Shown in pieces: positions 2,985 through 45,407 of a stretch of 54,099 nucleotides of DNA. Positions within the stretch are counted from its first letter, which is position 1; the number at the start of each line of letters is the position of its first letter. The stretch is from a virus: IMG/VR virus record IMGVR_UViG_3300022212_000093, positions 1 through 54,099 of that record. One strand, given 5' to 3'. The position numbers were made by a program, and so were the translations under genes. The notes beneath the pieces are model-generated. The model had not been told where the DNA came from. It saw only the letters and a program-made list of their open reading frames with translations, and did no database searches.

Positions 2985-3569
2985 TTAACCTCCGAGTATT
3001 CCCCATTCAGTAAGCCTTTTTCTTATGTCTCTCATTTCGTAATCAGTAAACGATAAACTCTGATAATGCCTTAAACTTGTCACTGGATCATGCCCTTGTC
3101 TGGAATATATTTCTATTTCAGGGATTCCGGCTTTTAACATCCAGGATTCAATAGTCTTTCTAGGTGTCTTAGGCCCAATCTTAGGCTCTATACCGGCTTT
3201 TTGTGACCATCTCTTTAGGTTCTTATTCCAGACATCCCGATGAGGCGGTCTAGGAGCTTCTAGGAAAGCCTTGAATAAATAAGGAAAAGTAGAGGGCAAT
3301 TTGTCTATAGTCCTCTTTACAAGCTTCTGCTTGACCTTCTTCTGTGCGTCCGGTGGTAAGATAATCTGGTTTCTCTCCTTGTGATACCAGCTTGGGTTAT
3401 CATGCAGCCTTTGCAGCTCAATGTATCGAAGTCCTGTGATTACATTGAGTTCGAAGGCTGGTCTATATGTTTTGCCTTGTTTTTTTTCAGGGATGAATTG
3501 AAGAAATTTATCGTATTCTTCGACGGTTAGGACTTTTGTGCCGTCGCCGGTTACTAGACCGTTATCCAT
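2985..3569 (-). CDS. int: Tyrosine recombinase/integrase, catalytic domain only (194 aa)
   Basis: TGLR (Arg I), KTPR (H/K-x-x-R), and GH...HY (His, catalytic Tyr). Confidence 0.85.
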   Translation of the reverse strand: MDNGLVTGDGTKVLTVEEYDKFLQFIPEKKQGKTYRPAFELNVITGLRYIELQRLHDNPSWYHKERNQIILPPDAQKKVKQKLVKRTIDKLPSTFPYLFKAFLEAPRPPHRDVWNKNLKRWSQKAGIEPKIGPKTPRKTIESWMLKAGIPEIEIYSRQGHDPVTSLRHYQSLSFTDYEMRDIRKRLTEWGILGG

Positions 3570-3579
3570 ATATCACACC

Positions 3580-4557
3580 TCATAAAAACGAATCCTCTCC
3601 GTAGAACGCTTTGTTATCACGGTTTGCTTCTATGATTTTGCTCCACCATTCATCTTTTATTTTTTCGTTAACATCGCCCACCCACCATTCATACGAACAC
3701 GCTTCATCCATTATTGTACAAAATAGCTGGTCTGGAATGCCACCCGGTTTATTTACCCAAGAATACTGTTTTAGTTTTTCTTCGAGAAGTTTCTCATGGC
3801 GTTCTTCTCTAGCCATTACTCGATCCCATTCTTCGTTGAATTCTTCTGTAAAAAAATAATCATCATCGGTATCTTCTGTAGTAAAATAATCATCATCGGT
3901 ACTTTTAGTTTGTATTATAGGAGTCTCACCGTGTTCAAACCTTGCCGACTTTGCAGCTTTTAAAGCGATGTTCACACGGTTGTTTTGTTGACCTTCGAAA
4001 GCATCGACCCACATACCATCTGGCAAATTATGCGAAATAAGTCGTTTCATTTCAGTTCCGGCAGATTCCGCGCCCCACCCCGCGTCTACCAAATCTGTAT
4101 TATAACAATGTGTAAACTTTAATCCAGAATCAAAAAACGCAAGGCTTGATATATGCACTCCTTTATAATGTTGGATACACGGGAACTCTATAATCATATC
4201 CTTATTACTTGGAATCCAAATATTAGATAAAATTAAAATTCCTCTTTCAGTTTGCCAACTATCTGCAACATCAGGCAATTGCCCTCCATAATCTACAGCA
4301 TTTGCCAACATCGCCCAATAATCCACCGTTACATTTTCTAAATCACCCTTTACTTCCACCCATGTTTTTGTTTCTGGAAGGTAAAAATCTGGAAGGTAAT
4401 ACCACGTTTTACTGCTACAAAAGTCTTCGATTTCATATCCTTCTTTTTCATACTCATACTTAATCCCTAGAGTATCAAAGAATACAGCCCATCTAGCTTC
4501 TAATCGGCTTCTAAACCTATACCCATTGTATACCGTTTCAATTGGCTTAATTTCCAT
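3580..4557 (-). CDS. PD-(D/E)XK nuclease family protein with acidic C-terminal extension
   Basis: FRSRLEARWAVFFD..YEYE.EG and YLPDFYLP...WVEVKG motifs; internal 30 bp tandem duplication encoding TDDDYF twice. Confidence 0.75.
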   Translation of the reverse strand: MEIKPIETVYNGYRFRSRLEARWAVFFDTLGIKYEYEKEGYEIEDFCSSKTWYYLPDFYLPETKTWVEVKGDLENVTVDYWAMLANAVDYGGQLPDVADSWQTERGILILSNIWIPSNKDMIIEFPCIQHYKGVHISSLAFFDSGLKFTHCYNTDLVDAGWGAESAGTEMKRLISHNLPDGMWVDAFEGQQNNRVNIALKAAKSARFEHGETPIIQTKSTDDDYFTTEDTDDDYFFTEEFNEEWDRVMAREERHEKLLEEKLKQYSWVNKPGGIPDQLFCTIMDEACSYEWWVGDVNEKIKDEWWSKIIEANRDNKAFYGEDSFL

Positions 4558-5245: not shown

Positions 5246-7138
5246 ATGTATATGAGTCTCCGGGAAACATTTATTTTATTCTTATATTTGTCGTCTTTAT
5301 TTTTTACAGGGTTTTTTACAGGGACTGCGTCGGCTGCCGGTGATTACATCGTAAGCCCGACGGGAGCTACAAACGACCAGGACGTTATCAACAAAGCGAT
5401 TGAAGAAGCAAGCGAGAACGGAGGCGGTACTGTCTATCTTAACCCTGGTGTCTATCTCGTAGATGGTCCAGTAATTATAAAATCAAATATTCATCTTACC
5501 GGAGACCCAAACGCGATTATAAGGGTATCCTCCACCTCTTCGCAATGGTTTAAAGGACAGATCGGGGTAATATGCAACCCTAGGGAGTCTGTGCATAATG
5601 TCGAAATATCAGGCTTCCAGATCGACGGGAATATTGCAAACCTACCTCGAAGTTACGCGAATTCAAGAAGCGACACGCGACACGACTGCGAAAAACTTAT
5701 TTTAATAGGCGGTTGGCAAAGCAATTTTGGAAGCAATATCAAAATACATGATATGAAGTTGTATAATGCCTTTAGCGACGGAATTTATATTAGATTTTCT
5801 AAGGGAGTCGCATGTTATAATAATTTCATATCAAACTGCCAACATGAAGGGATTTTCTTTTCATGTGTGCTCAATGGTTCAATTTATAAAAATAAGATTG
5901 CAGGTATAACAAGCGACTGTGCCAGGCTCGATAACTGTCAGAACTGCAAAATACACGATAACATTTTTTTCGCATACACAGGGGACAGTTACGGAGCGTA
6001 TAAGGGCGGGCACAACGGTCTGCAAATAGGGAACGCGGGAGTCTCCCACGGGTACGATGCAAGAAATAAACCATTCAAAACAAAAAATATTGAAGTTTTT
6101 AACAACGTTTTCTCTGATCCTGGGCTTAGGGCTATCTGGTACCATGGCGGGGAAAACGTGTATATACATGATAACAAGTTTGTCAATGCTGAAGAACTCG
6201 AAACCCTGGGTATTCCAGTCGGCGACATATCCTTCGAGAACCAGCCGAGTGTCGAAATGACGGAAAAAGTCTTTGGGGGTCTTCTTGAGATCCTTAACAT
6301 CGATTTCGTCGATAATGCAAGATATAACCAAACTGAGGATAGTATCAAAATACCAGTAGAGGAAAGGGACAAAGGGAAGATAAGAGGAGGTATTGTTGTC
6401 GCAGGCTTCGCCGACGTCGTTTATAAAAACGGCGTGCCTTACATCCCGGATAACGAAAGCGTACTCGTTAAAGCGATCGCCATGCCTTCACCAGCCAATA
6501 CTTTTAATGCTGGGGTCCACGGGATAGAAAAGCAGATCGAGAAAGGGATCGAAAACGGGGAAGCCTACGCGAAAATGACCGTAACAATGCACTATACCGT
6601 AAGCAGCAAAAACTCAAAAGGGGAGAAGGTTAAAAAGCTAAAGACTACTAAGGAAGTCTTCGAGGCGAAGCGGGTACCAGCTCCGGCGGTCCTTCCTCGA
6701 CCTGATAAAGTAAATTTCCGAATAGATCAACATATAGGAATTAAAAATTATACCACGGTCGCACCTTACCCCTCGGTTCCGGAGGGCCTGCAGAGGGTAG
6801 AGTATGAATATGATGGGAAGATCGTAAAACACGTTTTAGAAGTCGGTGAACGCATAAGAGGGGATAACGGTATAATTCACACAAATATAACAGAGGTCAA
6901 TTATTGGGACGGAGATCTCGACCATTTCGGAGACGGCTTGTATATTGAAGGAGAATTCGACCAGGATAAACTAAAGATCAGAGCATATACGATTTATGAG
7001 GAGATCCCAACAGAGTCAGAGTATTTCCTACATGAGTACAAAGCTCAGAGGCTCCTAAGCTTCGATAATATTATTGTGATCCTTAAAATCTTCCTGACTC
7101 TCTTTGCTTTATACCAACTCTTAAAAATCGTTTTTTAA
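5246..7138 (+). CDS. Membrane-anchored right-handed beta-helix (pectate lyase/disaggregatase-like) surface protein
   Basis: Signal peptide, DQDVINKAIEEA..GGGTVYLNPGVY beta-helix cap, parallel beta-helix repeats, C-terminal hydrophobic anchor. Confidence 0.8.
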   Translation: MYMSLRETFILFLYLSSLFFTGFFTGTASAAGDYIVSPTGATNDQDVINKAIEEASENGGGTVYLNPGVYLVDGPVIIKSNIHLTGDPNAIIRVSSTSSQWFKGQIGVICNPRESVHNVEISGFQIDGNIANLPRSYANSRSDTRHDCEKLILIGGWQSNFGSNIKIHDMKLYNAFSDGIYIRFSKGVACYNNFISNCQHEGIFFSCVLNGSIYKNKIAGITSDCARLDNCQNCKIHDNIFFAYTGDSYGAYKGGHNGLQIGNAGVSHGYDARNKPFKTKNIEVFNNVFSDPGLRAIWYHGGENVYIHDNKFVNAEELETLGIPVGDISFENQPSVEMTEKVFGGLLEILNIDFVDNARYNQTEDSIKIPVEERDKGKIRGGIVVAGFADVVYKNGVPYIPDNESVLVKAIAMPSPANTFNAGVHGIEKQIEKGIENGEAYAKMTVTMHYTVSSKNSKGEKVKKLKTTKEVFEAKRVPAPAVLPRPDKVNFRIDQHIGIKNYTTVAPYPSVPEGLQRVEYEYDGKIVKHVLEVGERIRGDNGIIHTNITEVNYWDGDLDHFGDGLYIEGEFDQDKLKIRAYTIYEEIPTESEYFLHEYKAQRLLSFDNIIVILKIFLTLFALYQLLKIVF

Positions 7139-7219
7139 TTTTTAAGTATGTAGTTTATCCGAATAAATTACATACTCTTTTCTTTTATTTTTTCTTCTGA
7201 TAGTGTTTAAGTGTTCTTA

Positions 7220-7263
7220 TTTTAGTGTTGTATATAAAGAACACTAAAATTTATATACTTTCG
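7220..7263 (+). promoter_or_regulatory. Promoter with inverted TTTTAGTGTT / AACACTAAAA operator pair and TATA box (TTTATATA)
   Basis: 10 bp inverted repeat at 7220-7229 and 7240-7249, followed directly by the TATA box, upstream of the 7281 operon. Confidence 0.55.
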
Positions 7264-7280
7264 AGACATATTGGATTTAT

Positions 7281-7670
7281 ATGAAAACTAAACAAGTATT
7301 TACAGCTGCTGCCTGGTTATCCCTGGCAGGTTTGGCGAGCACAGCCTCGGCTGCAGTCTCGCAGAATGGCACGTCTGTGTATATCCAACCAGACGCAGTG
7401 AACGGGTACAATAAATTAACCCAGTTTAATTTGTTTGGCTATCTCCTAGATTTCTTGGATATAGTCAACTATCTGGTTTATATCGCGGCTATTATCGTCG
7501 CTCTTTATTGTACCTTGCTCGTTATCATCAACATAGTAAACGGGAAAAGAGACCCGAAAGCAATAAGGGACGAGCTGTCCGCTCAGGAAGGGCTCGTTAA
7601 GGTCGTAAAAATTATAGTTTATATGAAAGTTGCCTTAATGATTATCGACTTTGTCTTCTACATAACATAA
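7281..7670 (+). CDS. Small membrane protein, VirB2/TrbC pilin-like candidate
   Basis: Signal peptide plus two hydrophobic helices; first gene of the operon ending in the VirB4-like ATPase. Confidence 0.5.
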   Translation: MKTKQVFTAAAWLSLAGLASTASAAVSQNGTSVYIQPDAVNGYNKLTQFNLFGYLLDFLDIVNYLVYIAAIIVALYCTLLVIINIVNGKRDPKAIRDELSAQEGLVKVVKIIVYMKVALMIIDFVFYIT

Positions 7671-7686
7671 AAGGAGAGCGGAAACG

Positions 7687-8628
7687 ATGCGACTGCTTCC
7701 CATCTTCGGTATTATTTTTTTATTTTCTTTTTCAGTCGTCCCGGTCATGGCTGCAGACGACGATAATACTGCAGCTCTCAAAGGAATAATAACCGGGGCA
7801 TTTGACGACTGGGTTACAAAACAAGCGGACGGGCTGGTCAAGGACTCAAAGCTCGTAAGTTCAAACAATACCGGCGATGAGGCGAGAGTCGGCGTTTTCG
7901 ATTTCGTTGTCTCTCCAATAACAATATTAGAGGATGGAACCTTCCAGAAAGAGACAATACAAATTTTTATTATTTTGGCGAAAATCCTGGTTATTATTGT
8001 CGCTCTGCTTGCATTAGTGCAGATTTTAGACCCGGATGCAGCCGGGGGAATAACAGAATTTTTCCACGGCAGAGCGACATATTACGAGCCGAAAGACGTG
8101 TTTAAAACGGGAATAAACCTCGCCTTATGGTTCCTTTGTGGTCCAGGGATCTTAATCGGTATGTTTTGGCTCTGTAATAACTGGGTTGGCCGGATGGATA
8201 CTTCTGTCCTCGATCAGGTGATCGTCTCTTCAGATAACCTCCCTAATTATGTAATTTTTGGGTTATCTGCTAAGGGCCTTAAAATTTACATGTCGATAAG
8301 GACGGCTATACTGCTTTTTGCGTCAAGATATTGGTATTATCTAGGTATAATGCTCGCATGGAAAAAGACACGATGGGTAGGAATTCTTATTCTCGAATAT
8401 ATCGCGGTTCAGGTTTTCGTCCAGCCTGTTTTAGTTAGTCTGTTAACTGAAACGGTCGGCTACACTTTAGACGGAGGCTTCGGGTTCCTCGTTGATATGG
8501 TAGTATACGGAGGTCTAGCAATCTTAATGTCTTTAATATGTTTCGTGGCACTCACTTGCCCGGTGTGGATAAAATTGTTTAGTCCTAACACATTAAGGTC
8601 AGTTGTAGGGATCGCAAAAATCGCATAA
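7687..8628 (+). CDS. Polytopic membrane protein, VirB6/TrbL-like candidate
   Basis: Signal peptide plus several predicted TM segments; operon context. Confidence 0.55.
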   Translation: MRLLPIFGIIFLFSFSVVPVMAADDDNTAALKGIITGAFDDWVTKQADGLVKDSKLVSSNNTGDEARVGVFDFVVSPITILEDGTFQKETIQIFIILAKILVIIVALLALVQILDPDAAGGITEFFHGRATYYEPKDVFKTGINLALWFLCGPGILIGMFWLCNNWVGRMDTSVLDQVIVSSDNLPNYVIFGLSAKGLKIYMSIRTAILLFASRYWYYLGIMLAWKKTRWVGILILEYIAVQVFVQPVLVSLLTETVGYTLDGGFGFLVDMVVYGGLAILMSLICFVALTCPVWIKLFSPNTLRSVVGIAKIA

Positions 8629-8641
8629 GGAGGCTTATTAA

Positions 8642-9532
8642 ATGACCAACGCACCCCCCGCGACGTTGAAGAAGGCTTACACGGGGCTCTCAGGGACCAG
8701 GGAAAAATCAAAAAAATTCTTGATTTCCGCTGGGACTGCTTTTTTAGACCTGGAGCTCGCGAGCCGTGCAAGAGAGATATATCGAGTTTACGGGTATGAT
8801 AATTATCTACTTCATTTTTATATCGGACTCGGATTGGTGGTTACTGCCACCGTCTGGATCTGCTTAAAAGACGACGCGGTCTTTTATAAAGTCGGTAATT
8901 TCTTAGACTTTTTATACAGATGGATAATGAGAAAAGATTTCGTTTATAAACATGATGATAAAAAAACAAGCGACAAAGACATCGACGAGCACGTAAAAGT
9001 TAAGAAAATGTCTGAGCTCGGCATAATTTGGTTTAAGATCCTGACAATATACAAAAGATACAAGTGTAACACCGGGGTTATTTTCGTAGTCAATCCCCAG
9101 AACGTACAGGACCTCGATGAATTTAACGAGAACACTGCACTGCTTCTATACAGCCTGCAGCCTGGTATCCTGCAGAAATACCACACGATTCAGAGCCAAG
9201 ATATGAGCGACATAGCCGAGCAATACGAGGAAAGGCTCAAATTACCACCCGAGGAGCTGGGACCGGCTGAGAGAGTCGGGCTTTTTTACACCAAACAATT
9301 TTTACAAAGTCTTTCAGGGAGAGTTAACTGGGCTTATTTCATTTTCCTCGGTACTGGCTATTATACAGATGAAGAAAAAGCTAACCTGGAAGTATCTAGG
9401 ATTATTAAAGCCTATCAGCTCTTTCTCGAAAATTCCGGTATTGAGTCAAGGCTCATAACCTCGCCTTACGAGTACGAATTGATAACGAAGCAAATGAGGA
9501 GCATGAAAAACATAGGGGTGGTTACTGTATGA
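8642..9532 (+). CDS. Membrane protein with soluble C-terminal domain, VirB3/PrgI/TrsD-like candidate
   Basis: One hydrophobic segment near residue 55-75; overlaps the start of the VirB4-like gene, the usual position of VirB3/PrgI. Confidence 0.45.
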   Translation: MTNAPPATLKKAYTGLSGTREKSKKFLISAGTAFLDLELASRAREIYRVYGYDNYLLHFYIGLGLVVTATVWICLKDDAVFYKVGNFLDFLYRWIMRKDFVYKHDDKKTSDKDIDEHVKVKKMSELGIIWFKILTIYKRYKCNTGVIFVVNPQNVQDLDEFNENTALLLYSLQPGILQKYHTIQSQDMSDIAEQYEERLKLPPEELGPAERVGLFYTKQFLQSLSGRVNWAYFIFLGTGYYTDEEKANLEVSRIIKAYQLFLENSGIESRLITSPYEYELITKQMRSMKNIGVVTV

Positions 9533-12168
9533 GTATTCCAATAATGCATAAGATCCTTCCAAAGCCCATAAAGAGAAGCTGGGCAGAATACAAATGTTTT
9601 TTAAACGTTAAAAACTGGTATAAACAGTTTGAGGAGATCGACAGGCGGCTCGTCCTGTCCCTTTCTCCTACTGTTTTTAAGCCAAAATGGGGAGGGCGGT
9701 ATCTATACGCTGACGGCTGCTATATGCAGATTATAAGCGTAGGAGATCCAAGTCCAATTAATCCTAATAGGCAGGGAATACCCCCTAGAAAGGATCTTAG
9801 GCTTATAGATGACCTGCTAGCCATTCCGACTGGGGAAAATGCCTGCATAGGAATTACGCAGACTGCTATACCCCTGCCTCCGCGAGACGAGATCGAAGCT
9901 CTCGAAAATGCAAGGCGCGAAAACATCCTGGCGGCTGCAATGCAGGAATCCGAAAACGAGGGCGTCTTTAAAAATATTCACGATAAAATTATAGATTACA
10001 TAGCTGAGGGAATAAACGAATACAACCGGGCAGTATTCGAGGGCCGCATGAGAATGTTTGAATTCTCGCTCTTGATAGCTGTTAAGGGGAAGACTACAAA
10101 AGACGTAGACGACCTTATGAGCCTGATTATTGCTCTCCTGGACGGTAAGAGGGTAATACATGAAATTTTAGAATATGGACAAGTCGATGCCTATTATATG
10201 ATGATGCCGACGCCGTTTGTAAAAGAAAGGTTACTCTCGACCACAACAGGCGAGATGGTAGCCAGGACCAGCCCGTTACGAAATAAAAACCCGAGGCTAG
10301 CGAAGTCGGGCCACTGGCTAGGGATCAATGAGGACACAAATAACCCAATTTTCTTAAATTTCAAAGACGGGAGCCTGGTTTCTGGTCATGCTATTGTAAT
10401 CGGGAAGTCGGGGTCCGGGAAGTCGACTGAGCTTCTTAAGGACGATAAAAGAGTTCTTGAGATGGGAGACGAGGCTTTCCATATAGTCCCGAAAGCAGAC
10501 GAAGACACAAACCACATTAATGTATGTAAAGAACTTGGTGGGCAGCTTATTAAGATCGGGCATAAGCGGGCGGGAGCACAAGATGCTGACTCTAACCCTA
10601 ACATGTTCCAGGTCTTCTTTGATCCGGAAAGAATGGATACCTCATTAGGATCCTACCAGCTTGCGTTTTCTAAACATATGTCTCTTTTGCCTGATGTCAT
10701 CGGGCTCCTAATTGGTGACAGTTTTTCAGACCCTCAGAGAAATTGGGTATATAGCTCGCTGGTAGAGTTATACCACAGGCGAGGAGTGATAGACGACAAC
10801 GGAAACGTCATCAACCTTGATAAATGGGAAGATGGCAACTTCTGGCCTAACTTCGACGACTGGCGGGCTCTCATATATGAGTGGATGCAAGACGATGAGC
10901 ACAAAGCTCCTCATGTGAATTCTGTCCTTGCTGCAATCTATAACAATACAACCATGATAACCAAGAAGGGGCCATATGGTTTCTTGGTCAATAACAATAT
11001 CCTAAAGCTTAGGAATAGATTTACAATGGTTGACCTTTCCGAGCTCATTGATACCCCTCATATCCAGGACGCGATGATCCTGCTTATAACAGGGATAATA
11101 AATACAAAAATACAATGTGTCCCGAAGGGGCAGGTTAAAAAACATATTTTCATTACATTGGACGAGGGCGCAAACCTGGTTAAAATTCCACGGATGCGGC
11201 ACGTAATCGAAAGGATGTTCAGAGAGCTTCGCAGTTTTGGAGGTCATCTTAAAATAGTATTCCAAGACCTTGCAGGCGTGCCCCCAGAGATGATAAACAT
11301 GATGAAAACAAATTCCGACTACGTGCTCCTGCTTTCTAACATGTCGGCCTATAACATAAAGCCGTTAGTTAAAGAATTTAACCTCACTAGAAACGACATA
11401 AGGAGACTTAAAGCGAAAGGAAAAGGAAAGGGCCTCCTGATCATCGGAGACACGCGTATAAACTATTTCAATTCACTTACACCAGATGATGAGAGGGTAA
11501 TCTTTGGGAAATCGTTGAAAGTTGATTCTGAGAATACAGAGCAGTCGGCTGGATTCAGCCTGGATAAAAGAGTTCAATGGGTAAAGGATAAGCACAAAGT
11601 ATTTTTAAAAGACTGGCTGGTTGGTATTAACCTTAATCAGGTTATACGGGTACCCGGTTACGAGATGGAGCAATTCGACCATCCATTCCAGGCTGGAAAG
11701 AAAACGGCTTATATTGAAGTCGGGCTCGAAAAAGAGGATGGGCACATCAAAAACCAAACAAAGGAACATTACCTCTTTGTCTGTGCTCTCGCAGGCGAAT
11801 GCTCATTAATGGGAGCAGTCGCAACTACTGACGACTACGGCACAGGGCAGGAAGTAGACGTTAAGCTAGTCTTCAACCAGGGTACAGCTAACGAAACTGT
11901 AATCGGGATTGAAGTTGAAATCGAAAGATCGCATACTGTAAAGGAGCTCCAGGAAAAACGAGACAGGTTATTGATGAGAAAACGCGATGGGAAGCCTGAA
12001 TTTGACCATATAATTTTCACAGGAACACATGATTATTATAAAACGACACTCCGCGACGCGGTCGGACCTGATTTCTCAGCACCTAGAGGGAAGAGGCTTA
12101 AAGATAAAATACTCGCCTGCGTGAAAGCAGGAAAGAGGGCGACCGATAGCGATAATTTAGAGGACTGA
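9529..12168 (+). CDS. virB4: VirB4/TraG-like ATPase with C-terminal nuclease-like extension
   Basis: Walker A GKSGSGKST, Walker B ITLDEGA, downstream RELRSFGG and FQD motifs of the VirB4/HerA-FtsK group; long N-terminal VirB4-type region; 879 aa. Confidence 0.8.
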   Translation: MSIPIMHKILPKPIKRSWAEYKCFLNVKNWYKQFEEIDRRLVLSLSPTVFKPKWGGRYLYADGCYMQIISVGDPSPINPNRQGIPPRKDLRLIDDLLAIPTGENACIGITQTAIPLPPRDEIEALENARRENILAAAMQESENEGVFKNIHDKIIDYIAEGINEYNRAVFEGRMRMFEFSLLIAVKGKTTKDVDDLMSLIIALLDGKRVIHEILEYGQVDAYYMMMPTPFVKERLLSTTTGEMVARTSPLRNKNPRLAKSGHWLGINEDTNNPIFLNFKDGSLVSGHAIVIGKSGSGKSTELLKDDKRVLEMGDEAFHIVPKADEDTNHINVCKELGGQLIKIGHKRAGAQDADSNPNMFQVFFDPERMDTSLGSYQLAFSKHMSLLPDVIGLLIGDSFSDPQRNWVYSSLVELYHRRGVIDDNGNVINLDKWEDGNFWPNFDDWRALIYEWMQDDEHKAPHVNSVLAAIYNNTTMITKKGPYGFLVNNNILKLRNRFTMVDLSELIDTPHIQDAMILLITGIINTKIQCVPKGQVKKHIFITLDEGANLVKIPRMRHVIERMFRELRSFGGHLKIVFQDLAGVPPEMINMMKTNSDYVLLLSNMSAYNIKPLVKEFNLTRNDIRRLKAKGKGKGLLIIGDTRINYFNSLTPDDERVIFGKSLKVDSENTEQSAGFSLDKRVQWVKDKHKVFLKDWLVGINLNQVIRVPGYEMEQFDHPFQAGKKTAYIEVGLEKEDGHIKNQTKEHYLFVCALAGECSLMGAVATTDDYGTGQEVDVKLVFNQGTANETVIGIEVEIERSHTVKELQEKRDRLLMRKRDGKPEFDHIIFTGTHDYYKTTLRDAVGPDFSAPRGKRLKDKILACVKAGKRATDSDNLED

Positions 12169-12249
12169 GAAAACCAGAATTCAGGAAATCCACCTGATTT
12201 TAACCTCAATTCTACCGAAAGCGACGCTCTGACGGCTTAACTCCTTGCG

Positions 12250-12358
12250 GTACTGTCCCTAACGGGACATACGGCTCGCTATAGCTCCGGGCTATAATAA
12301 GCCCGGCATACGCTCGCCTATAGTCCCTTAAGGTCCAGTCCCTCCGGGCTTAAGCCCG
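12250..12358. other. Cluster of short GC-rich hairpins/palindromes after the VirB4-like gene
   Basis: TGTCCC-TAAC-GGGACA, TATAGC/GCTATA, CCGGGCT/AGCCCGG, perfect palindrome CGGGCTTAAGCCCG. Confidence 0.7.
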
Positions 12359-12451
12359 TCGGGAACGATTAAAACCCACGCGATTATAAAAATAAAATTG
12401 TGTTACTTATTATTACAGAAGATATGAATTGTAATAACGAGGGTTTCCAAG

Positions 12452-12850
12452 ATGAATAACTTTTTAAATGTCTCCTGCGATTGTGTTTTTATGAAAGGAG
12501 AAGAAGATGAACCTAAAAAAGAAAGGGTTGGAAGTGGTATGTATCATGCAGTAGACCTTGATGAATGGGACGACCCTTTCCCTGTTCTCACGATAGGCAA
12601 CAAAGGGCGAGTACATCTCCCTCTTCGTTATCTCGACTCTGACATATGGGTATTCATTTCTGAAGCGGCAGACATAAGGGAAAAATGTAATCTTATATTA
12701 TTACCCAAAACAGGGCCGACAAAGTGGGTAGAGGTCTTTCAATCAAGAGGGAAAAACGCAGGAGACCTTTTAAATGTCTTCGGAAACGGCGATATTTGCG
12801 TAAAATATAAAAAAGGTATGAATGTTAAAGTATTCGTGAGGAGAGCATGA
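12452..12850 (+). CDS. Hypothetical protein
   Basis: 132 aa ORF, ATGA overlap with the next gene. Confidence 0.65.
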   Translation: MNNFLNVSCDCVFMKGEEDEPKKERVGSGMYHAVDLDEWDDPFPVLTIGNKGRVHLPLRYLDSDIWVFISEAADIREKCNLILLPKTGPTKWVEVFQSRGKNAGDLLNVFGNGDICVKYKKGMNVKVFVRRA

Positions 12851-13269
12851 ATTTAGAATTTACCCCCTTAAAAGTTATTTTGCTTATGATCCTAGCAGCT
12901 ACCGGCGGGATCATTGGAGGGCAGCACATAGCAGCACAGGTCCAGCAGGTCGACCAAGCGGAGAGCTTCGAGGATCAGATCAGAGCAAACGTTATACAGG
13001 TAGATAACGAGATTCAGGCGCTTAAGCTGGCATATAATAACTCAAGCGTCGGATATTTCCGGGCAGACTGCCAGAATACGCAGCAGTATATAACGGAGAA
13101 ATGGCTGGCAGCGAGCCGAGACTCAGGCATGAGCCAGGAGGACCGGAGGCTTAACGCAGAATACAGGGATTTTTTAGTCGAAGCCAGCAGCATTATAGAC
13201 GTTTACCTGGCGAGAAGTAACCCGGACTTCACAGAGTATGAAAAATACAGAGACAATTTATTAAAATGA
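12847..13269 (+). CDS. Membrane-anchored/secreted hypothetical protein
   Basis: N-terminal hydrophobic helix followed by a helical soluble domain. Confidence 0.7.
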   Translation: MNLEFTPLKVILLMILAATGGIIGGQHIAAQVQQVDQAESFEDQIRANVIQVDNEIQALKLAYNNSSVGYFRADCQNTQQYITEKWLAASRDSGMSQEDRRLNAEYRDFLVEASSIIDVYLARSNPDFTEYEKYRDNLLK

Positions 13270-14675: not shown

Positions 14676-15053
14676 TTAAGTCCGTTGTTGCCCGACTGTC
14701 TCACATTTCCACCCGTTCGCCTGCCAGATTCTCCTTACTATTTCATCCCTCGAAATCGCCCCGCCTCGATACATCCCGACAAGTTCAGGATGTTCAGCGA
14801 GGTACTTCAAGACGTTACCATGACAGGGCTTTGGATAGCACCAACATGCAAGCCATTTACCTTTAAGTTCGTGAAGATCATCTAGTAACTTACTATCTAA
14901 AATATAGTAGGCGTATCTCCTGATTACATGCATGCGTTCACTTTCCGAGCGCATTCTATAAGGATTTCCCCATTTTGATTTTCTGTCAATTCTTACGATT
15001 TGCGAAGGGACGCGTGGAGTATAATGCATGTTGAGGATTTCGATTTCAGACAT
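14676..15053 (-). CDS. DUF4326 family protein
   Basis: RIDRKSKWGNPY ... ELKGKWLACWCYPKPCHGNVL signature. Confidence 0.85.
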   Translation of the reverse strand: MSEIEILNMHYTPRVPSQIVRIDRKSKWGNPYRMRSESERMHVIRRYAYYILDSKLLDDLHELKGKWLACWCYPKPCHGNVLKYLAEHPELVGMYRGGAISRDEIVRRIWQANGWKCETVGQQRT

Positions 15054-21648: not shown

Positions 21649-22533
21649 ATGACTAACGCAATAGCAGAATTTTCTAAGAAGATCGACGAAAAACTCGTAG
21701 ACCCTCTGCGCCAGGTCTTGAAAGGCAGAACTCTCGTATATGTGACCCCCCCACAGGGTTTCGAGATCTCAAACGTGGAATGGGGCAAAATTATCGAAAT
21801 GTCAGAGGGTATGGTCTCCTATTCCTTCACATCAGGAAATAAGGACCAGATCGACGCGACCCTCACAAATTCCAAAATTCCAGTTTACTGGAAGGAATAC
21901 GAGATCGACCGCAGGATCTATGAGAGCTGGAACGCTCGCGGTACTGACATTGACGCAGCTAACGCGATCGCTGCAGGCTACGCAGCCGCAAAGGTCGAAG
22001 ACGCCGCAATTATCGACGGTGTAACCAGGGACGGGACAAACTACGAGATACCCGGCCTATATCAGGGTGCCGGGGTGGACTATAACACAGCTACCAGCCT
22101 AGTAACTTTCGGAATGGCAACAAAAGCCGTTTCAGGGTGTCTAAACCTCATGGACGACGCTGGAGTCCCGGTGGACCGCATAAAGTGGAACTGGGCCGTT
22201 CCTTCGGCTGCTTATCACAAAATAAGGAGCATAAGAAACTCTAATGGAGTAAAAGAGCTGCCCGACGTCCTAGACATGCTTAACGGCGGTGAGCTAGTCT
22301 CCGTTGGTACAATCCTCGCGCCTAATCAGTCCGTGCTTGTACCCGATCCCTCAGTCGGAGAGCCTTTTGTCGATTTCTACCTTACAGCAGACTTCCAGAC
22401 AGACCCGAAAAACCCCGAATATGTAAAAACCGGAAACATTGGGGGACGTGTATTCTCTGCCGGTGTCCTGAGAATTAAGCAGGAAGCTGCACTCGGGAAG
22501 ATTTCAAACCTAACTTACACAACCGGAGAATAA
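21649..22533 (+). CDS. Major capsid protein, HK97 fold, encapsulin/Linocin-M18-like
   Basis: Position; LRQVLKGRTLV, IPVYWKEYEIDRR and AAKVEDAAIIDG resemble family 1 encapsulin motifs. Confidence 0.8.
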   Translation: MTNAIAEFSKKIDEKLVDPLRQVLKGRTLVYVTPPQGFEISNVEWGKIIEMSEGMVSYSFTSGNKDQIDATLTNSKIPVYWKEYEIDRRIYESWNARGTDIDAANAIAAGYAAAKVEDAAIIDGVTRDGTNYEIPGLYQGAGVDYNTATSLVTFGMATKAVSGCLNLMDDAGVPVDRIKWNWAVPSAAYHKIRSIRNSNGVKELPDVLDMLNGGELVSVGTILAPNQSVLVPDPSVGEPFVDFYLTADFQTDPKNPEYVKTGNIGGRVFSAGVLRIKQEAALGKISNLTYTTGE

Positions 22534-26083: not shown

Positions 26084-29000
26084 GTGGCAGTAGGTGAGCT
26101 TGTAGTTAGTATAATAGGAGATATGCGAGAACTTTCCAAGACTTTCGCCCAGGTCCAGACTGAAATAGATGGTATCGGAAAAAAGTTTCAGAGCATAGGA
26201 AGTGCCCTTAAAGACACTGGAAAAACGATGTCTACCTACGTCACGGCTCCTCTCGTAGGCATAGGCGCAGTTTCACTACATACTGCAGCTAATTTTGACG
26301 ACTCAATGCGGAAAGTCCAGGCTGTTTCGGGTGCAACTGGATCGGATTTTGAAAAACTTACAAAACAGGCTAGAGAGCTTGGAGCGACCACGGCATTCTC
26401 GGCATCCGATGCAGCGGACGCAATGTATTACCTTGCACTCGCAGGCTGGGACGTCAACGAGATCATGGACGCCACGCCTGGGCTTCTGTCTCTCGCGAGT
26501 GCGGCAGGTATGGATCTCGGCGAAGCGGCAGATATCGTAAGTGACACAATGTCAGGTTTCACGATGACAGCTGACCAAGCTGGGAGAGCGGCTGACGTTT
26601 TTGCAACCATCACCTCAAGCGCAAACACTGATGTACACCAGCTAGGCGAGGCTATGAAATATGCTAGCTCGACGGCAAACGCTGCAGGTATGGACCTTGA
26701 GCAGACTGCAGCAGTGCTGGGAGTTCTCGCCGATTCAGGTATCAAGGGAAGCATGGCTGGAACTACATTTAATGCTATGCTTCGTGATATGAGAAAAAAT
26801 GCTGTCGACGGCACAATTGCGATCGGGAGACACACGATAGCCCTCTACAATCAAGACGGGACTATGCGTGACCTCGGAAGCATCATGGCAGAAGTAGAAA
26901 AAGCTACCGAGGGGATGACTGACAAACAAAGAGATGCTGCTCTAAGTGCGATTTTCCAGGAAGAGTCCATTAGGGGAGTAAACATCATGCTTGCCACGGG
27001 CTCAGAGCGGTATCAAGAACTTGAAGCGAAGTTACGAAGCTCGGAAGGCGCAGCAAAAGACATGGCTGACACTATGGAAGGAGGTGTTGGCGGGGCAATT
27101 CGAGAGATGGAGTCCGCTCTTGAAGAACTCATGATAGTTCTGGGGAATATAATAGTCGTGGGAGTCACTCCACTAATAAAATATATCACTGATCTGGCAA
27201 ACTGGTTCTCGAAACTCCCTGCTCCGGTTCAACAAACCGTAGTAGCTATAGGAGCGATATTAGCGGCAATTGGACCGCTCCTCATAATAATCGGCTCGGT
27301 TGCCTCTGCAATCGGTTCTCTAGCTGCATTATTCGGCTCAGAAGGTGCTCTCGCTACAGCAATGACGTTTATTTCTAAATCAGTGATCCCCGCGCTTGGG
27401 TCCGCTTTAGGAACTTTACTTTCACCTGTCGGTTTAATTGCTATCGCAGTCGCAGCCCTGGCTCTTGCATGGAAAAACAATTGGGGAGATATTCAGGGCA
27501 AAGCAAAAGCTGTATGGGACTGGCTACAGTCCGAAATGAATAAGCTTGTAAACAGGCTTGAATACTATTATCACGCCCTTGTTATGGCGATTAGTGCAGC
27601 CGACCTTGAGGATAAATGGGATCGCATTAAAAACCGGCTCGAATACTACTATCATGCTCTTGTGATGGGTGCGAGTGGTCTGTACAACGACCTGAAAAAG
27701 TATTGGGGTGAACTGTCTACCGCACTCGAACCCGCAAAGGAAAGTCTCAGTTCAGCATGGGACAGTATAAAAACGATCTGGGAAACGTTCAAAACCTCGT
27801 TCCTTGACAGCATGAGTACCCTGTATGAGGACGTGAAGAAAGCTCTCGAACCCCTACGGGACACCCTTGATGAACTGTGTCAGCAACTCAAAGAAGACAT
27901 AATTCCTGTCGTCCTTGACTTCCTTGGCTCTTTTAGCGGCTCGGCCATGGACGACGCACAGGCCGATATCGATTCACTCACGGATATCATTAATTTCCTT
28001 AGCGAGAAACTCAGAGAGTTCTTCGATTGGGTAGCACGTCACCCCGAAATCACCGAATTTGTTGCCACAGTTGCGGCTATGGCTGTAGCTATACCGGTTG
28101 CTCTCGGTCTTTTAGCTGCCGCTATTGTCCTGTTTGTCGCAAAAGTCGTAAGCCTGTTTATTGAGCTTGTCAAAGCCGCATACGACCTGTATACTGATTG
28201 GAAGGATCATTTTGAAAATTTGAAGACTACAGTAACCCAAGCTATTGATAATATCATTGCAAAGGTTCGGGGTTGGTATACTGAAAACGTAAACAAATTC
28301 AACCAGATTAAATCTGCCGCGTTGGATTTACTGAATAACTGGCGTACGCATTGGGACAATATCAAGACCACTCTAACGCAGGCCGTTTCTGATATCGTCA
28401 CAAGATTACAGGGCTGGTATAATGACACCCAGGCCAGATTTACCCAAGTAAAAGCAGCTGCCCTTGATATTCTCAATAACTGGCGTACACACTGGGAGAA
28501 TTTCAAGACCACTCTCAATCTAGCTGTAGCTAACATTATTGCCAAGTTGCAGTCCTGGTACACGGACGTACAGAACAGGTTTAATCAGGTCAAGGCGGCG
28601 GCTCTTGATTTTTATAACAACTGGAAAGCAAGGTGGGATTCGATATGGAAGACCCTCAGCGATGCTAAGGACTACATTATCAATACCGCTCAGATGCTTT
28701 ACAACGATCTGCTAAACCAGTATAACCGGATTAAAGCGGAGCTTTCTAACCTGCTTACTGAATGGAAGGCAAGATGGAACGAAATATATACGTCCGTAAA
28801 AACGAAGGCTACCGAGATCGTTGATGAGGTTTACGGGATTGTAACCAAACTTAAAAACAAGGCAACCGAGTTTTATAACGCAGGAAAGAACCTTGTCCAG
28901 AACTTGATAGACGGGATCAACGACAAAATTTCTTCTCTCAGGAAAAAAATAGACGAACTAACCTCAATGATAGCCGACTATTTGCCTATGAATAGTCCGT

Positions 29001-29530
29001 CATTGAAAGGTGCTCTTTCAAAACTCCCAAAATGGGATGACGTTGTTTCAAGTCCAGTCGCTAAATCGCTTTCTTCTACAGTTTCAGCAGCTAAACGCGC
29101 AGGGTCCTCCATAGTAAGCTCTATCGCGAGCGGAATATCCTCAGCTGCAAAAACTGCATACAACGCTGCCTCTTCTGCCCTTAAAAAAATCAAGAGCCTG
29201 CTCCCTCACTCTCCTGCGGAAGAGGGCCCTTTCCGTGTTCTACCTAACTGGGATGCCGTTTTTTCAGATCCTATCGAGGCATCAATCAAAAAAATCAGGT
29301 CCATGTCTGAAGATCTGAGAAGCGCACTATCAGTACTCAGAAGCCCTATAGACTCCAGCCTGTTAGCCGGGTTCAACCGTATTACAAATGTTACAAACTC
29401 GACTTATATCGGTGATTCGATCACAATAGGACCAAATACCCTGAATAGCGGGTTAGATCTCGAAGCAATTTTTGAAGTGGTCAGTCGAATGACAGCCGAA
29501 AAAAGGAGAGCCAGGGGGTTGTATAGATGA
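26084..29530 (+). CDS. Tape measure protein
   Basis: 1148 aa, TP901-type core (ARELGATTAFSASDAADAM...GIKGSMAGT), Trp-periodic helical repeats (about 47 aa units). Confidence 0.95.
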   Translation: MAVGELVVSIIGDMRELSKTFAQVQTEIDGIGKKFQSIGSALKDTGKTMSTYVTAPLVGIGAVSLHTAANFDDSMRKVQAVSGATGSDFEKLTKQARELGATTAFSASDAADAMYYLALAGWDVNEIMDATPGLLSLASAAGMDLGEAADIVSDTMSGFTMTADQAGRAADVFATITSSANTDVHQLGEAMKYASSTANAAGMDLEQTAAVLGVLADSGIKGSMAGTTFNAMLRDMRKNAVDGTIAIGRHTIALYNQDGTMRDLGSIMAEVEKATEGMTDKQRDAALSAIFQEESIRGVNIMLATGSERYQELEAKLRSSEGAAKDMADTMEGGVGGAIREMESALEELMIVLGNIIVVGVTPLIKYITDLANWFSKLPAPVQQTVVAIGAILAAIGPLLIIIGSVASAIGSLAALFGSEGALATAMTFISKSVIPALGSALGTLLSPVGLIAIAVAALALAWKNNWGDIQGKAKAVWDWLQSEMNKLVNRLEYYYHALVMAISAADLEDKWDRIKNRLEYYYHALVMGASGLYNDLKKYWGELSTALEPAKESLSSAWDSIKTIWETFKTSFLDSMSTLYEDVKKALEPLRDTLDELCQQLKEDIIPVVLDFLGSFSGSAMDDAQADIDSLTDIINFLSEKLREFFDWVARHPEITEFVATVAAMAVAIPVALGLLAAAIVLFVAKVVSLFIELVKAAYDLYTDWKDHFENLKTTVTQAIDNIIAKVRGWYTENVNKFNQIKSAALDLLNNWRTHWDNIKTTLTQAVSDIVTRLQGWYNDTQARFTQVKAAALDILNNWRTHWENFKTTLNLAVANIIAKLQSWYTDVQNRFNQVKAAALDFYNNWKARWDSIWKTLSDAKDYIINTAQMLYNDLLNQYNRIKAELSNLLTEWKARWNEIYTSVKTKATEIVDEVYGIVTKLKNKATEFYNAGKNLVQNLIDGINDKISSLRKKIDELTSMIADYLPMNSPSLKGALSKLPKWDDVVSSPVAKSLSSTVSAAKRAGSSIVSSIASGISSAAKTAYNAASSALKKIKSLLPHSPAEEGPFRVLPNWDAVFSDPIEASIKKIRSMSEDLRSALSVLRSPIDSSLLAGFNRITNVTNSTYIGDSITIGPNTLNSGLDLEAIFEVVSRMTAEKRRARGLYR

Positions 29531-43304: not shown

Positions 43305-45407
43305 ATGGAATATAATTTTAAAACCCTAGCGGAGGTTACCTTCCCTAAATTTTTTAGTAAAGATCAGGTTTTCAACTTCGCGAAACCTGGTGAGAAAAGA
43401 GTCCCCGGTAACTACTGGGAAGAACTTTTGAAATTATGCTATGAGTACCCAGAGAGTAAAAGCTTATACGTAGAGTATAGACATGTCGAAAATTACGACT
43501 TAGACCTTGCGAAGTATCTAATAAATAACCCGAACACGTTTTTTAGCGCAGCTAAAGAGGCAATCGCTAGTATGTCTTTTCCGACTACAGACCTGCCAGA
43601 TATTGAAGTCCGTATAACTTCCATGCCTGACGCATGGCAGATACCTATAAGCAGGCTCAGGAAAGAACACCTTAATAAGCTGATATCGGTCCTCGGCGTG
43701 GTCTCTAAAGCCACGGAGATAAGACCAGTCAGGACTAAAACGGCTTTTCAGTGTCTACGCTGCGGACATGTTACAATAGTAGAGCAGAGCGAAGAGACAG
43801 ACGCCCTGCAGGAACCTTTCGCGGGCTGCGAAAACGACACCTGCGGAAAGAAAGGGCCTTTCAAGATCAAAGAGGATGAAAGCGAATATATCGACTATCA
43901 GATACTAAAGATCCAGGAACCACTAGACACGCTCAGAGGCAGACAACCCGAGTTTCTATACGTTGCCTGCAGCGAGGAACTTGCAGGAGCCTGCAAGCCT
44001 GGCGATAAAGTCGTAATCGTCGGAGTCCTGCAGGGACGCCCGAGGGTAAAGAAAGACGGAAAAAGAACAAGGTTTCTAGATTTTATCCTGGTGGCTAACT
44101 CGATAATGAAAAGTACCAGGGATTTCGAGAACATCCCGATAAGCCAGGAGGAGGAAAAGCAGATCCTCGAGCTTTCGAAGAAGCCGAACATCGACAAAAT
44201 AATTTATAACTCGATCGCGCCTTCGATCTTCGGGATGGAAAACGTTAAGCAGGGCGTCGCTTTACAGCTATTTTCAGGGACCGGGCGGCGGCTTAACGAC
44301 GGAACGTGGCAGCGCGGGGACATTCATATTCTATTAGTAGGCGACCCAGGTATCGCAAAAAGCCAGATTCTAAAATTTGTTGCCGATTTCGCACCACGGG
44401 CGATAATGGTTTCCGGGCAGTCTGCGAGCGGTGCCGGGCTTACTGGCGCGGCGGTACATGACGATTTCGATGGTAGATGGGCGATAGAAGCCGGGGCCCT
44501 CACTATGGTAAGCGGGTCCGAGGACTTCGAGGGCGGTATATGCTGCGTTGACGAAGTCGATAAAATGAAAGAAAATGATAGGTCTATGATCCACGGAGCA
44601 TTAGAACAGCAATGCGTCGACATCGCTAAAGCTGGAGTCTTTGCACACTTGCCGACTCAATGCGCTTTCCTTGGAGCTGCAAATCCCAAGTATGGGCGGT
44701 ATGATCAATACGAAAGTATAGCAACTCAATTTAATCTGGGGGACGCTCTCCTCTCCAGAATGGATTTACTTTATGTTATCCGTGACGTGCCAGACCAGGC
44801 TTTCGACGAGAAGCTGGCCTTATACGTCCTGGACGAGAGGACCGACGGAAACGGGCCGGGTTTAATAGATCTTGAATTGCTCAGGAAATACATAGCTTAT
44901 GCGAAAACACACTGCTTCCCGGTAATGACGCCAGAGGCTAGGGACTACATAGCAAAATTCTACGTGTCAACCAGGAACGCAGGCAGCAAGGTAAAGGACT
45001 CCGTACCCGTGACGGTTAGAGCTCTACATGCAGCCCGAAGGCTCGCAACAGCTCACGCAAGAATGAGGTTATCCTCTACCGTGGACCTAAAAGATGCTGT
45101 CGCAGCCTGCAAGCTCCTAATTGACAATTTAAGCCAGGTAGGAATCGACCCGGATACCGGGGCCTTAGACGCTACTGTCCTGGAGGCAGGGACGTCAGGG
45201 AGTCAGAGGTCAAACATAAAGAAGATCAAGGAAATCATAGAGAGACTCTCTAAAGCCGATATAGTACACCAGGAAGCAAAGCTCGACAGAGTCATCGAAA
45301 TGAGCCTGGAGGCTGGCATAAAAGACCCTGAGGGTTTAATTAAGAAGATGAAGCAGAAGGGCGATATAATAAGCCCGACGCAGAGCACCTTAAAATTAGT
45401 AAAATAA
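43305..45407 (+). CDS. mcm: MCM replicative helicase
   Basis: Zn finger CLRC...CENDTC, Walker A GDPGIAKSQ, Walker B VDEVDKM, AANPKYGRYD, Arg finger SRMD. Confidence 0.97.
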   Translation: MEYNFKTLAEVTFPKFFSKDQVFNFAKPGEKRVPGNYWEELLKLCYEYPESKSLYVEYRHVENYDLDLAKYLINNPNTFFSAAKEAIASMSFPTTDLPDIEVRITSMPDAWQIPISRLRKEHLNKLISVLGVVSKATEIRPVRTKTAFQCLRCGHVTIVEQSEETDALQEPFAGCENDTCGKKGPFKIKEDESEYIDYQILKIQEPLDTLRGRQPEFLYVACSEELAGACKPGDKVVIVGVLQGRPRVKKDGKRTRFLDFILVANSIMKSTRDFENIPISQEEEKQILELSKKPNIDKIIYNSIAPSIFGMENVKQGVALQLFSGTGRRLNDGTWQRGDIHILLVGDPGIAKSQILKFVADFAPRAIMVSGQSASGAGLTGAAVHDDFDGRWAIEAGALTMVSGSEDFEGGICCVDEVDKMKENDRSMIHGALEQQCVDIAKAGVFAHLPTQCAFLGAANPKYGRYDQYESIATQFNLGDALLSRMDLLYVIRDVPDQAFDEKLALYVLDERTDGNGPGLIDLELLRKYIAYAKTHCFPVMTPEARDYIAKFYVSTRNAGSKVKDSVPVTVRALHAARRLATAHARMRLSSTVDLKDAVAACKLLIDNLSQVGIDPDTGALDATVLEAGTSGSQRSNIKKIKEIIERLSKADIVHQEAKLDRVIEMSLEAGIKDPEGLIKKMKQKGDIISPTQSTLKLVK

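Follow-up and report, generated by a model that had tools for sequence, protein, structure and literature searches.

Can a head-tailed virus of archaea maintain, next to its virion genes, a machine that would pass DNA directly from one cell to another? The question is raised by a locus in the IMG/VR virus record IMGVR_UViG_3300022212_000093, analysed here over its whole length of 54,099 nucleotides (nt) and called the window below. A preliminary description had singled out five co-oriented genes at 5246-12168 as a minimal operon of the type IV secretion system (T4SS) kind, and their open reading frames (ORFs) were found exactly there. With two conserved genes added downstream, the cassette comprises seven genes instead of five and occupies 5246-13269, between the head-assembly and capsid genes and on the strand of the structural genes. 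We lean towards reading it as a virus-borne minimal type-IV-secretion-like cassette of the monoderm/archaeal kind, which would serve as a contact-dependent DNA channel beside the virions. Its features are the following (aa, amino acids; TM, transmembrane).

5246-7138, + strand, membrane-anchored glycanase-like protein of 630 aa with a right-handed beta-helix of the pectate-lyase/rhamnogalacturonase kind (gene 1)
7281-7670, + strand, small signal-peptide protein of 129 aa with two hydrophobic helices (gene 2)
7687-8628, + strand, polytopic membrane protein of 313 aa (gene 3)
8642-9532, + strand, VirB4 N-terminal half of 296 aa (gene 4)
9529-12168, + strand, VirB4 ATPase of 879 aa (virB4; motor part 9529-11565, C-terminal domain 11566-12168)
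11566-12168, + strand, PD-(D/E)xK-like (restriction-endonuclease-fold) domain, ATPase residues 660-879, fused to VirB4
12169-12451, non-coding spacer after virB4, with several GC-rich hairpins, palindromes and inverted repeats
12452-12850, + strand, conserved soluble protein of 132 aa (gene 6), with homologues after virB4 in the relatives L003, L006, L011, L014 and L015
12847-13269, + strand, conserved protein of 140 aa with one N-terminal TM segment (5-23), overlapping gene 6 by 4 nt, with homologues in L002, L003, L004 and L011

The gaps between genes 2 to 5 measure 16, 13 and -4 nt, the last being a 4-nt overlap of gene 4 with virB4, and Shine-Dalgarno-like motifs precede the genes. This tight arrangement indicates that genes 2 to 5 form one operon.

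The VirB4 motor and gene 4

The 879-aa ATPase is, judging from its sequence, a member of the VirB4 family and not of HerA/FtsK. Its Walker A (S294-K298) and Walker B (D545-E546) motifs are invariant in 18 homologues. Every strong NCBIfam match is a VirB4 family: NF045975, the VirB4 of Mycoplasma integrative and conjugative elements (ICEs), with E 1.3e-28 (residues 122-659 against profile positions 349-893), NF045971 (CD1110 family, E 1.7e-25), TIGR00929 (VirB4_CagE, E 6.2e-16) and TIGR02746 (TraC, E 2e-11). A profile built from the 18 homologues retrieved Thermoanaerobacter VirB4 from the PDB (4AG5, E 7.6e-10, residues 275-635), the next entry being DotL at 0.11. Searches with the single sequence found no match in the PDB and, among phage records, only two unannotated gut contigs with 23% identity. 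The remotest relatives, P0033 and P0034, sit in conjugative elements of Firmicutes together with a MobL relaxase, a coupling protein, TrbL_4 and a cell-wall hydrolase.

The assignment to the VirB4 group made in the preliminary description therefore stands. It is very unlikely that the ATPase is instead a HerA/FtsK-type or defence-type P-loop protein unrelated to secretion, acting in an anti-virus system or as a DNA pump for packaging: matches to FtsK_SpoIIIE (marginal, E 0.049), to a PHROG terminase family (E 1.2e-6) and to the PADLOC MADS component mad8 (E 2e-6) do occur, but they span only the shared P-loop core and lie 20 orders of magnitude below the VirB4 scores, the virus encodes its own TerL, and the VirB4-specific N-terminal domain, absent from VirD4, FtsK and HerA, is present, partly by way of the separate 296-aa gene. 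The defence interpretation was dropped, mad8 being the sole PADLOC component matched and the match that of a generic P-loop.

How this N-terminal domain is supplied could be traced in some detail. VirB4 models first align with the ATPase at residues 110-160, corresponding to profile positions 240-350, so that the front of a normal VirB4 is missing from the 879-aa protein. The 296-aa protein encoded just upstream contains one strong hydrophobic segment (56-74), and its model shows a two-helix hairpin (21-50 and 55-76). The gene is laid out as a VirB3/PrgI-like anchor at about 21-76 followed, at about 110-296, by the first part of the VirB4 N-terminal domain. When a gene-4 profile of 12 orthologues was run against 1.84 billion representatives, 128 proteins were obtained, mostly of 270-300 aa; five of them are fusions of 1054-1178 aa, aligned at their N-termini. 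One fused homologue, P0069, matches NCBIfam VirB4_plasma from end to end (positions 14-894 of 894, E 2.4e-44), and its residues 328-1052 align with the 879-aa ATPase, C-terminal domain included (E 9e-37).

Structural comparisons point in the same direction. The model of the 296-aa protein, of moderate quality with a predicted local distance difference test score (pLDDT) of 66, has R388 TrwK/VirB4 as its best match with both Foldseek and VIA-align. Residues 110-296 superpose on TrwK 15-278 with Z 8.0-8.2, a value of about 8 being borderline on the tool's own scale, and with a root-mean-square deviation of 3.2 A over 138 aligned residues at 7% identity. Complex prediction with ATPase residues 1-660 and gene-4 residues 96-296 gave a score of 0.77, a mark attained by 58 of 80 solved complexes and by 2 of 110 mismatched pairs, while the best control reached 0.01; contact agreement among runs was at least 77% and the pLDDT of the partner at least 77. 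In the predicted complex, ATPase strand 108-114 pairs with gene-4 residues 178-184 and would thereby extend a sheet across the two chains. Since solved VirB4 structures exist, passing this test may reflect likeness to them.

The split occurs in all viral and chromosomal relatives, which excludes a sequencing frameshift. These results support a VirB4 divided over two genes, the 296-aa protein providing the membrane anchor and part of the N-terminal domain and the 879-aa protein the remainder and the motor. The earlier view of gene 4 as a single-TM VirB3/PrgI holds for the two-helix anchor, and a distant orthologue in L030 matches PrgI (VirB3-like, E 0.0021); hhalign of the gene-4 family against the single protein at the PrgI position of a Firmicutes element was negative. 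The protein is nevertheless not merely a VirB3/PrgI, as the fusions and the TrwK-like fold show that it also carries VirB4 N-terminal sequence.

The C-terminal domain and the other cassette proteins

ATPase residues 660-879 likely adopt the PD-(D/E)xK fold class, as judged by a model (pLDDT 85.6) in which the order of secondary-structure elements fits the alpha-beta-beta-beta-alpha-beta core of PD-(D/E)xK nucleases. Its leading Foldseek matches were nearly all PD-(D/E)xK nucleases (Cdn1, MspJI, EndoMS, HindIII, Can2 and FokI, E 0.008-0.1), and VIA placed Bax1 (Z 7.0), Can2 (6.8), AF1548 (6.8) and Hjc (5.8) at the top, together with Card1 and restriction enzymes. Neighbours of the domain in the ESM Atlas were Mrr_cat nucleases, HerA-type ATPases with a similar domain, and a cluster with 16% Replic_Relax members. 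Pfam searches with 10 members gave only noise, and the PDB profile search returned nothing usable. Even relatives with 22-25% identity retain D777 and E795 without exception and E797 and K810 almost always. D777 begins a strand, the next strand carries E795-x-E797 and the helix after it K810, at the sites where the catalytic residues of the fold are located. In two related viruses the domain is unfused and encoded by separate ORFs, of 104 aa (G178:C1:19837-20079, the virus behind L037) and 134 aa (G179:C1:15432-15668, the virus behind L038). Stand-alone copies were also observed in Methanosarcinaceae genomes (G004:C167, G128:C139 and G014:C23), some of them with stop codons.

The 313-aa protein is a candidate VirB6/TrbL-like channel. 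It contains a signal peptide, an extracellular stretch and at least four TM segments, and in the ESM Atlas its feature score to a TrbL_4 cluster is 0.92 (204 of 256 shared), all ten best named matches belonging to the TrbL clan. The family stands directly upstream of VirB4 in every relative, including the element with a coupling protein, L032 (E 3.9e-19). A word-indexed search with the polytopic profile returned close relatives only, and Pfam searches with ten further homologues of the polytopic and small proteins gave no TrbL match, save in the unrelated remote locus L005.

Similarly, the 129-aa protein is a candidate pilin of the VirB2/TrbC type, its signal peptide and two hydrophobic helices forming a pilin-like layout. 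Among 11 orthologues or positional equivalents, two match TrbC (PF04956, best E 9.3e-4) and one matches T4SS_pilin (PF18895, E 0.0018), all under the Pfam cut-offs; the protein of the window itself matches neither. Atlas scores of 0.85-0.86 to T4SS_pilin/TrbC clusters provide a lead only. The gene order pilin, VirB6-like, VirB3/PrgI, VirB4 that had been proposed for the locus does mirror that of minimal T4SSs and of the archaeal Ced/Ted systems, but the VirB6 and VirB2 identities within it are at the level of leads.

The 630-aa protein that opens the cassette matches PF12708 (E 7.5e-15), PF13229 (E 6.4e-8) and a PHROG tail spike (E 2.5e-20), and bears hydrophobic segments at 8-26, as a signal-like N-terminus, and at 608-626, as a C-terminal anchor. 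Beta-helix homologues with 33-46% identity stand first in the cassette in all relatives, some of them carrying the disaggregatase-associated domain PF08480. The protein is a candidate for the envelope-opening enzyme or the adhesin of the cassette.

Downstream of virB4, the spacer 12169-12451 may be a terminator, a regulatory site or a transfer origin. Neither of the two downstream proteins matched a known family. For gene 6, no Pfam match was found and the PDB profile search gave nothing usable; an AbrB-like DNA binder was considered for it and dropped for lack of support.

The cassette within and outside the virus lineage

The record had been described as a complete tailed virus, and its virion and replication genes bear this out.

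1573-2457, Mu-F-like head protein
21649-22533, HK97/Linocin-like capsid (PF04454, E 1.7e-13)
26084-29530, tape measure (PF10145, E 1.4e-51)
43305-45407, MCM helicase
46364-47785, large terminase TerL of the T4 type (PF03237 and PF17289)
49525-50763, portal (PF04860, E 4.4e-5, under the cut-off)

Large terminase, portal, HK97-fold major capsid protein and tail genes thus lie on one replicon, as expected of Caudoviricetes. An exact 119-nt terminal repeat closes the 54 kb record, which IMG/VR classes under direct terminal repeats. A beta-helix tail-spike ORF spans the record ends (52383-54099 joined to 120-427), so that the linear record cuts one gene. The virus also encodes two disaggregatase-related fibres. 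Its beta-helix proteins number four, the junction-spanning tail spike included.

Relatives were collected from NCBI, IMG/VR, ENA and Logan assemblies. The same cassette, with its gene order kept and head genes beside it, was found in contigs of 58 kb (NCBI), 54 kb (ENA) and 60 kb (Methanosarcinaceae, encoding a terminase) and in an IMG/VR record of 53 kb. The junction between cassette and head genes was seen in independent assemblies (L002, L004 with terminal repeats of its own, L006, L028 and G178-G180). Searching the viral collection for the Mu-F-like head protein yielded four further virus contigs, and all three that are long enough carry a VirB4 homologue, like the 53 kb IMG/VR record. The cassette was present in every sufficiently long relative examined. 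Identity to the window falls from 70% in L004 to 41% in L006 and 23% in L028 for the ATPase, and from 72% to 52% and 21% for the capsid, suggesting that the divergence of the cassette roughly follows that of the capsid. Maximum-likelihood analysis united the viral copies in one clade (support 100/99) and grouped the chromosomal copies with fused plasmid-like forms; L028 and P0108 are on long branches and their placement is unsafe.

One could object that the association is artefactual or accidental, a virus having been joined to a plasmid or ICE during assembly or an unrelated mobile element having inserted recently: the record was assembled from a metagenome, genes for an integrase and an endonuclease stand just upstream on the other strand, and related cassettes exist outside viruses. 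We consider this very unlikely because independent assemblies place the cassette at the same site relative to the Mu-F-like and capsid genes, its divergence parallels that of the capsid and the viral copies are monophyletic; its G+C content is also unremarkable.

The host is very probably Methanosarcina, since Methanosarcina genome bins contain two homologous contigs, 13 of 177 Methanosarcinaceae genomes have related cassettes and several virus proteins carry the disaggregatase-associated domain. Short cassette contigs L012-L015 are binned in metagenome-assembled genomes labelled Desulfosporosinus, Cloacimonas, Acholeplasmataceae and Proteiniphilum; these labels almost certainly reflect binning errors and not cross-domain spread.

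Copies with 22-24% identity are found outside viruses, in three Methanosarcinaceae genomes (L029, G155:C19; L030, G151:C14; L031, G124:C6). They are four- or five-gene versions composed of the beta-helix protein, the polytopic protein and the split VirB4 with its nuclease-like tail. Their neighbours are ordinary cellular genes, for a phosphate-binding protein, an alkaline phosphatase, PspA and a DinB-like polymerase, and none of the three genomes gave a terminase match. These copies may be domesticated and represent a counterpart of Ced/Ted in methanogens. The surroundings of the fused P0069 (L032), for their part, resemble those of a plasmid or ICE: toxin-antitoxin pairs, an ArdC-like gene and a VirD4-type coupling protein are its neighbours. 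The element around another fused VirB4 includes a primase-polymerase. Taken together, the chromosomal and plasmid-like copies suggest a module common to mobile elements of the archaeal type, one branch of which has settled in tailed viruses.

Some further loci and neighbouring genes were noted. An orphan copy of the polytopic gene, 46% identical, occurs in Methanosarcina siciliae HI350 (CP009507, MSSIH_2000; L035), within an integrated element that encodes an integrase and a DnaG/DUF5906 primase but no virB4; it looks like a decayed remnant, so that this strain does not serve as a model. L005 (IMGVR_UViG_2651870362_000004), a 21 kb locus, encodes a 791-aa VirB4 with 22% identity, a weakly TrbL-like protein of 279 aa and large neighbour genes; no ORF besides its virB4 matches ORFs of the window, and the contig, although classed as viral, may in fact be a conjugative element. 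In the window itself, the minus-strand region 2985-4557 upstream of the cassette includes a tyrosine-integrase-like gene of 194 aa (PF00589, E 1.7e-11) and, adjoining it, a gene for a 325-aa protein whose N-terminus resembles phage T7 endonuclease I and Holliday-junction resolvases (PF05367, E 3.9e-4; phrog_21138, E 1.1e-38), both pointing away from the cassette. A DUF4326 protein (14676-15053, - strand, E 4.3e-22) is among the small minus-strand genes that separate the cassette from the capsid block.

Proposed transfer between cells and its alternatives

Very likely, the cassette encodes an envelope machine that is functional and based on VirB4. The chance that this machine moves DNA between cells is about even or slightly better. 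Specific export of the virus genome, a more tentative proposal, would still be the most likely single reading, ahead of Ced-like import and of roles without DNA. With a nuclease-fold domain on the motor, an envelope glycanase, and channel-like and pilin-like proteins, a contact-dependent DNA conduit fits best. In such a scheme, infection or lysogeny would bring the two VirB4 halves together at the cell membrane under the VirB6-like channel, and a short pilus might be part of the machine. The beta-helix glycanase would locally open the methanochondroitin/S-layer envelope, the fused nuclease-like domain would cut the viral genome, and a single strand would move to a neighbour cell of the aggregate. 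Contact-dependent spread would then run beside the virion route, and transfer to neighbours would take place inside methanochondroitin-encased aggregates, where virions would diffuse poorly. The most far-reaching form of this proposal, a Methanosarcina head-tailed virus lineage with two routes, virions and a channel free of relaxase and coupling protein for which the motor's own PD-(D/E)xK nuclease cuts the DNA, is more doubtful.

Several observations weigh against a DNA-transfer channel. First, as stated in the preliminary description, neither a separate relaxase nor a VirD4 coupling protein could be recognized: for the coupling protein, PF02534 had no match in the whole record and PF12696 only one of 14.8 bits inside virB4, divergent forms being possible, and for the relaxase, of which some families were searched, PF03432 and PF08751 had no match in the record. 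Families of either kind were also absent from Pfam scans of 30 ORFs. Second, the spacer sequence is unconserved in relatives with 45-71% ATPase identity, so that there is no recognisable transfer origin, and the idea of the hairpin spacer as a conserved origin was dropped. Third, neither the VirB6 nor the VirB2 assignment reaches a curated threshold. No Pfam TrbL match at E <=0.1 was obtained with 10 members of the 313-aa family, hhalign of this family against the single TrbL_4 protein of a Firmicutes element was negative, and PDB profile searches with the polytopic and the small protein found no matches. The ATPase scores far under the equivalog cut-offs (99 bits against 590 for NF045975 and 89 against 325 for NF045971; for PF19044, 21.7 against 25.8), which makes it a divergent VirB4 branch and a member of no named subfamily. 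As to the nuclease-like domain, its fold matches are weak (Z <=7.0) with receiver domains mixed in at similar Z, and the third motif position is E and not K, which leaves nuclease activity uncertain. Finally, among archaeal relatives only Ced is functionally characterized, and it imports DNA instead of exporting it.

This last point leads to Ced (Sulfolobales, Aeropyrum) and Ted (Thermoproteales), which consist of VirB2-, VirB6- and VirB4-like proteins, are without relaxase and coupling protein and are thought to carry naked single-stranded DNA; archaeal conjugative plasmids are likewise without relaxase (PMC9905601). The likeness resides in this archaeal minimal VirB2/VirB6/VirB4-like set without relaxase or VirD4 (PMC9905601). 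Ced adds a small two-TM protein, and TedC pilin has a cleaved signal peptide, as the pilin candidate here has a signal peptide. In contrast, Ced and Ted are chromosomal host systems for which import was shown (Ced) or proposed (Ted), whereas the present cassette is borne by a head-tailed virus, has a split VirB4, a nuclease-like domain and a leading beta-helix glycanase, and resembles them only marginally in sequence. It is best described as analogous to Ced in composition and not as a member.

One could therefore imagine a Ced/Ted-like DNA importer, carried as lysogenic-conversion cargo for uptake in repair, recombination or nucleotide supply, with the nuclease-like domain processing incoming DNA. 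Besides the shared composition, the distant four- or five-gene copies lying among host genes in Methanosarcinaceae chromosomes, in genomes without a terminase match, would suit this idea, as would a similarity to CedB that is weak in the ATPase of the window (E 4.3e-4, 19 bits for a cut-off of 700) and reaches E 2e-15 in the fused P0069. However, a match in 13 of 177 genomes of the family is a distribution typical of mobile elements and not of the host core, the likeness to CedB is far weaker than that to conjugative VirB4s, and the viral copies constitute a long-lived clade that has diverged in parallel with the capsid, which suggests a benefit tied to the virus. Sequence does not reveal in which direction transport would run. 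We regard an importer as improbable.

A machine that moves no DNA, and acts in protein secretion or display, as an adhesive pilus, or in envelope remodelling for virus release or superinfection block, also seems unlikely. Bacterial T4SSs also export proteins, gene 1 is an envelope glycanase related to the tail fibres of the virus itself, and the location of the cassette among head-assembly and capsid genes on their strand would agree with such roles, as would the missing coupling protein, relaxase and conserved transfer origin. On the other hand, the conserved nuclease-fold domain on the motor points to nucleic acid, a fused VirB4 with the same C-terminal domain adjoins a DNA-transfer coupling protein in L032, and no effector candidates are evident. 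Moreover, a dedicated secretion motor is not needed for the beta-helix, pilin-like and polytopic proteins, each of which brings a signal peptide of its own.

The cassette can also be compared with other known systems. Monoderm and archaeal T4SSs of the MPF-FATA type (CD1110-family, Mycoplasma-ICE and PrgI/PrgH/PrgJ sets) provide the best motor matches, NF045975 and NF045971, and share the order of small membrane protein, polytopic protein, VirB3-like anchor and VirB4. In both, an envelope hydrolase is found alongside (NlpC/P60 in L008, the beta-helix glycanase here), and some MPF-FATA VirB4s carry an N-terminal membrane anchor, like the fused relatives of the cassette VirB4. Unlike these sets, the cassette has no recognised coupling protein, relaxase or VirB8-like protein, its VirB4 is split and has an extra PD-(D/E)xK-like domain, and the element that hosts it is a virus with full virion genes. 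In R388 (TrwK/VirB4 with TrwM/VirB3; PDB 7O43, 8RTB and 8RTD), on which the soluble part of gene 4 superposes, VirB3 precedes VirB4 as the two-helix anchor does here, but R388 is a diderm system with an outer-membrane core complex, which the archaeon lacks. Phage-plasmids such as P1 and N15 likewise combine virus and plasmid-type genes in one element (PMC12282955), and the present virus also has an MCM replication module and an integrase. They are described as moving between cells as virions, with plasmid functions only for maintenance (PMC12282955). Our literature search found no phage-plasmid described with mating-pair machinery of its own and none from archaea and, incomplete as its coverage was, no account of a T4SS-like module in a tailed virus of archaea. 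New here are the split VirB4, the chromosomal and coupling-protein-linked cousins, and the presence of the cassette in all examined relatives of the virus.

Viruses and conjugative elements are treated as alternative modes of DNA movement, and a lineage that combined virion genes with a conserved mating-type machine over long evolution would blur this division. Methanosarcina grows as matrix-encased packets, a setting that could make spread from cell to cell profitable to a virus. For archaeal T4SS-like machines the cassette provides a compact model of defined sequence, in a genus with genetically tractable species, and its split VirB4 reveals separable parts of the motor. Adapted to the archaeal envelope, the beta-helix glycanase may play the part that peptidoglycan hydrolases have in bacterial T4SSs. 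Archaeal conjugative plasmids and Ced/Ted lack a DNA-processing enzyme, for which the nuclease-like domain, fused here and a separate protein in some relatives, is a candidate; if the virus does spread by both routes, the fused nuclease would be a candidate answer to how archaeal conjugation proceeds without a relaxase.

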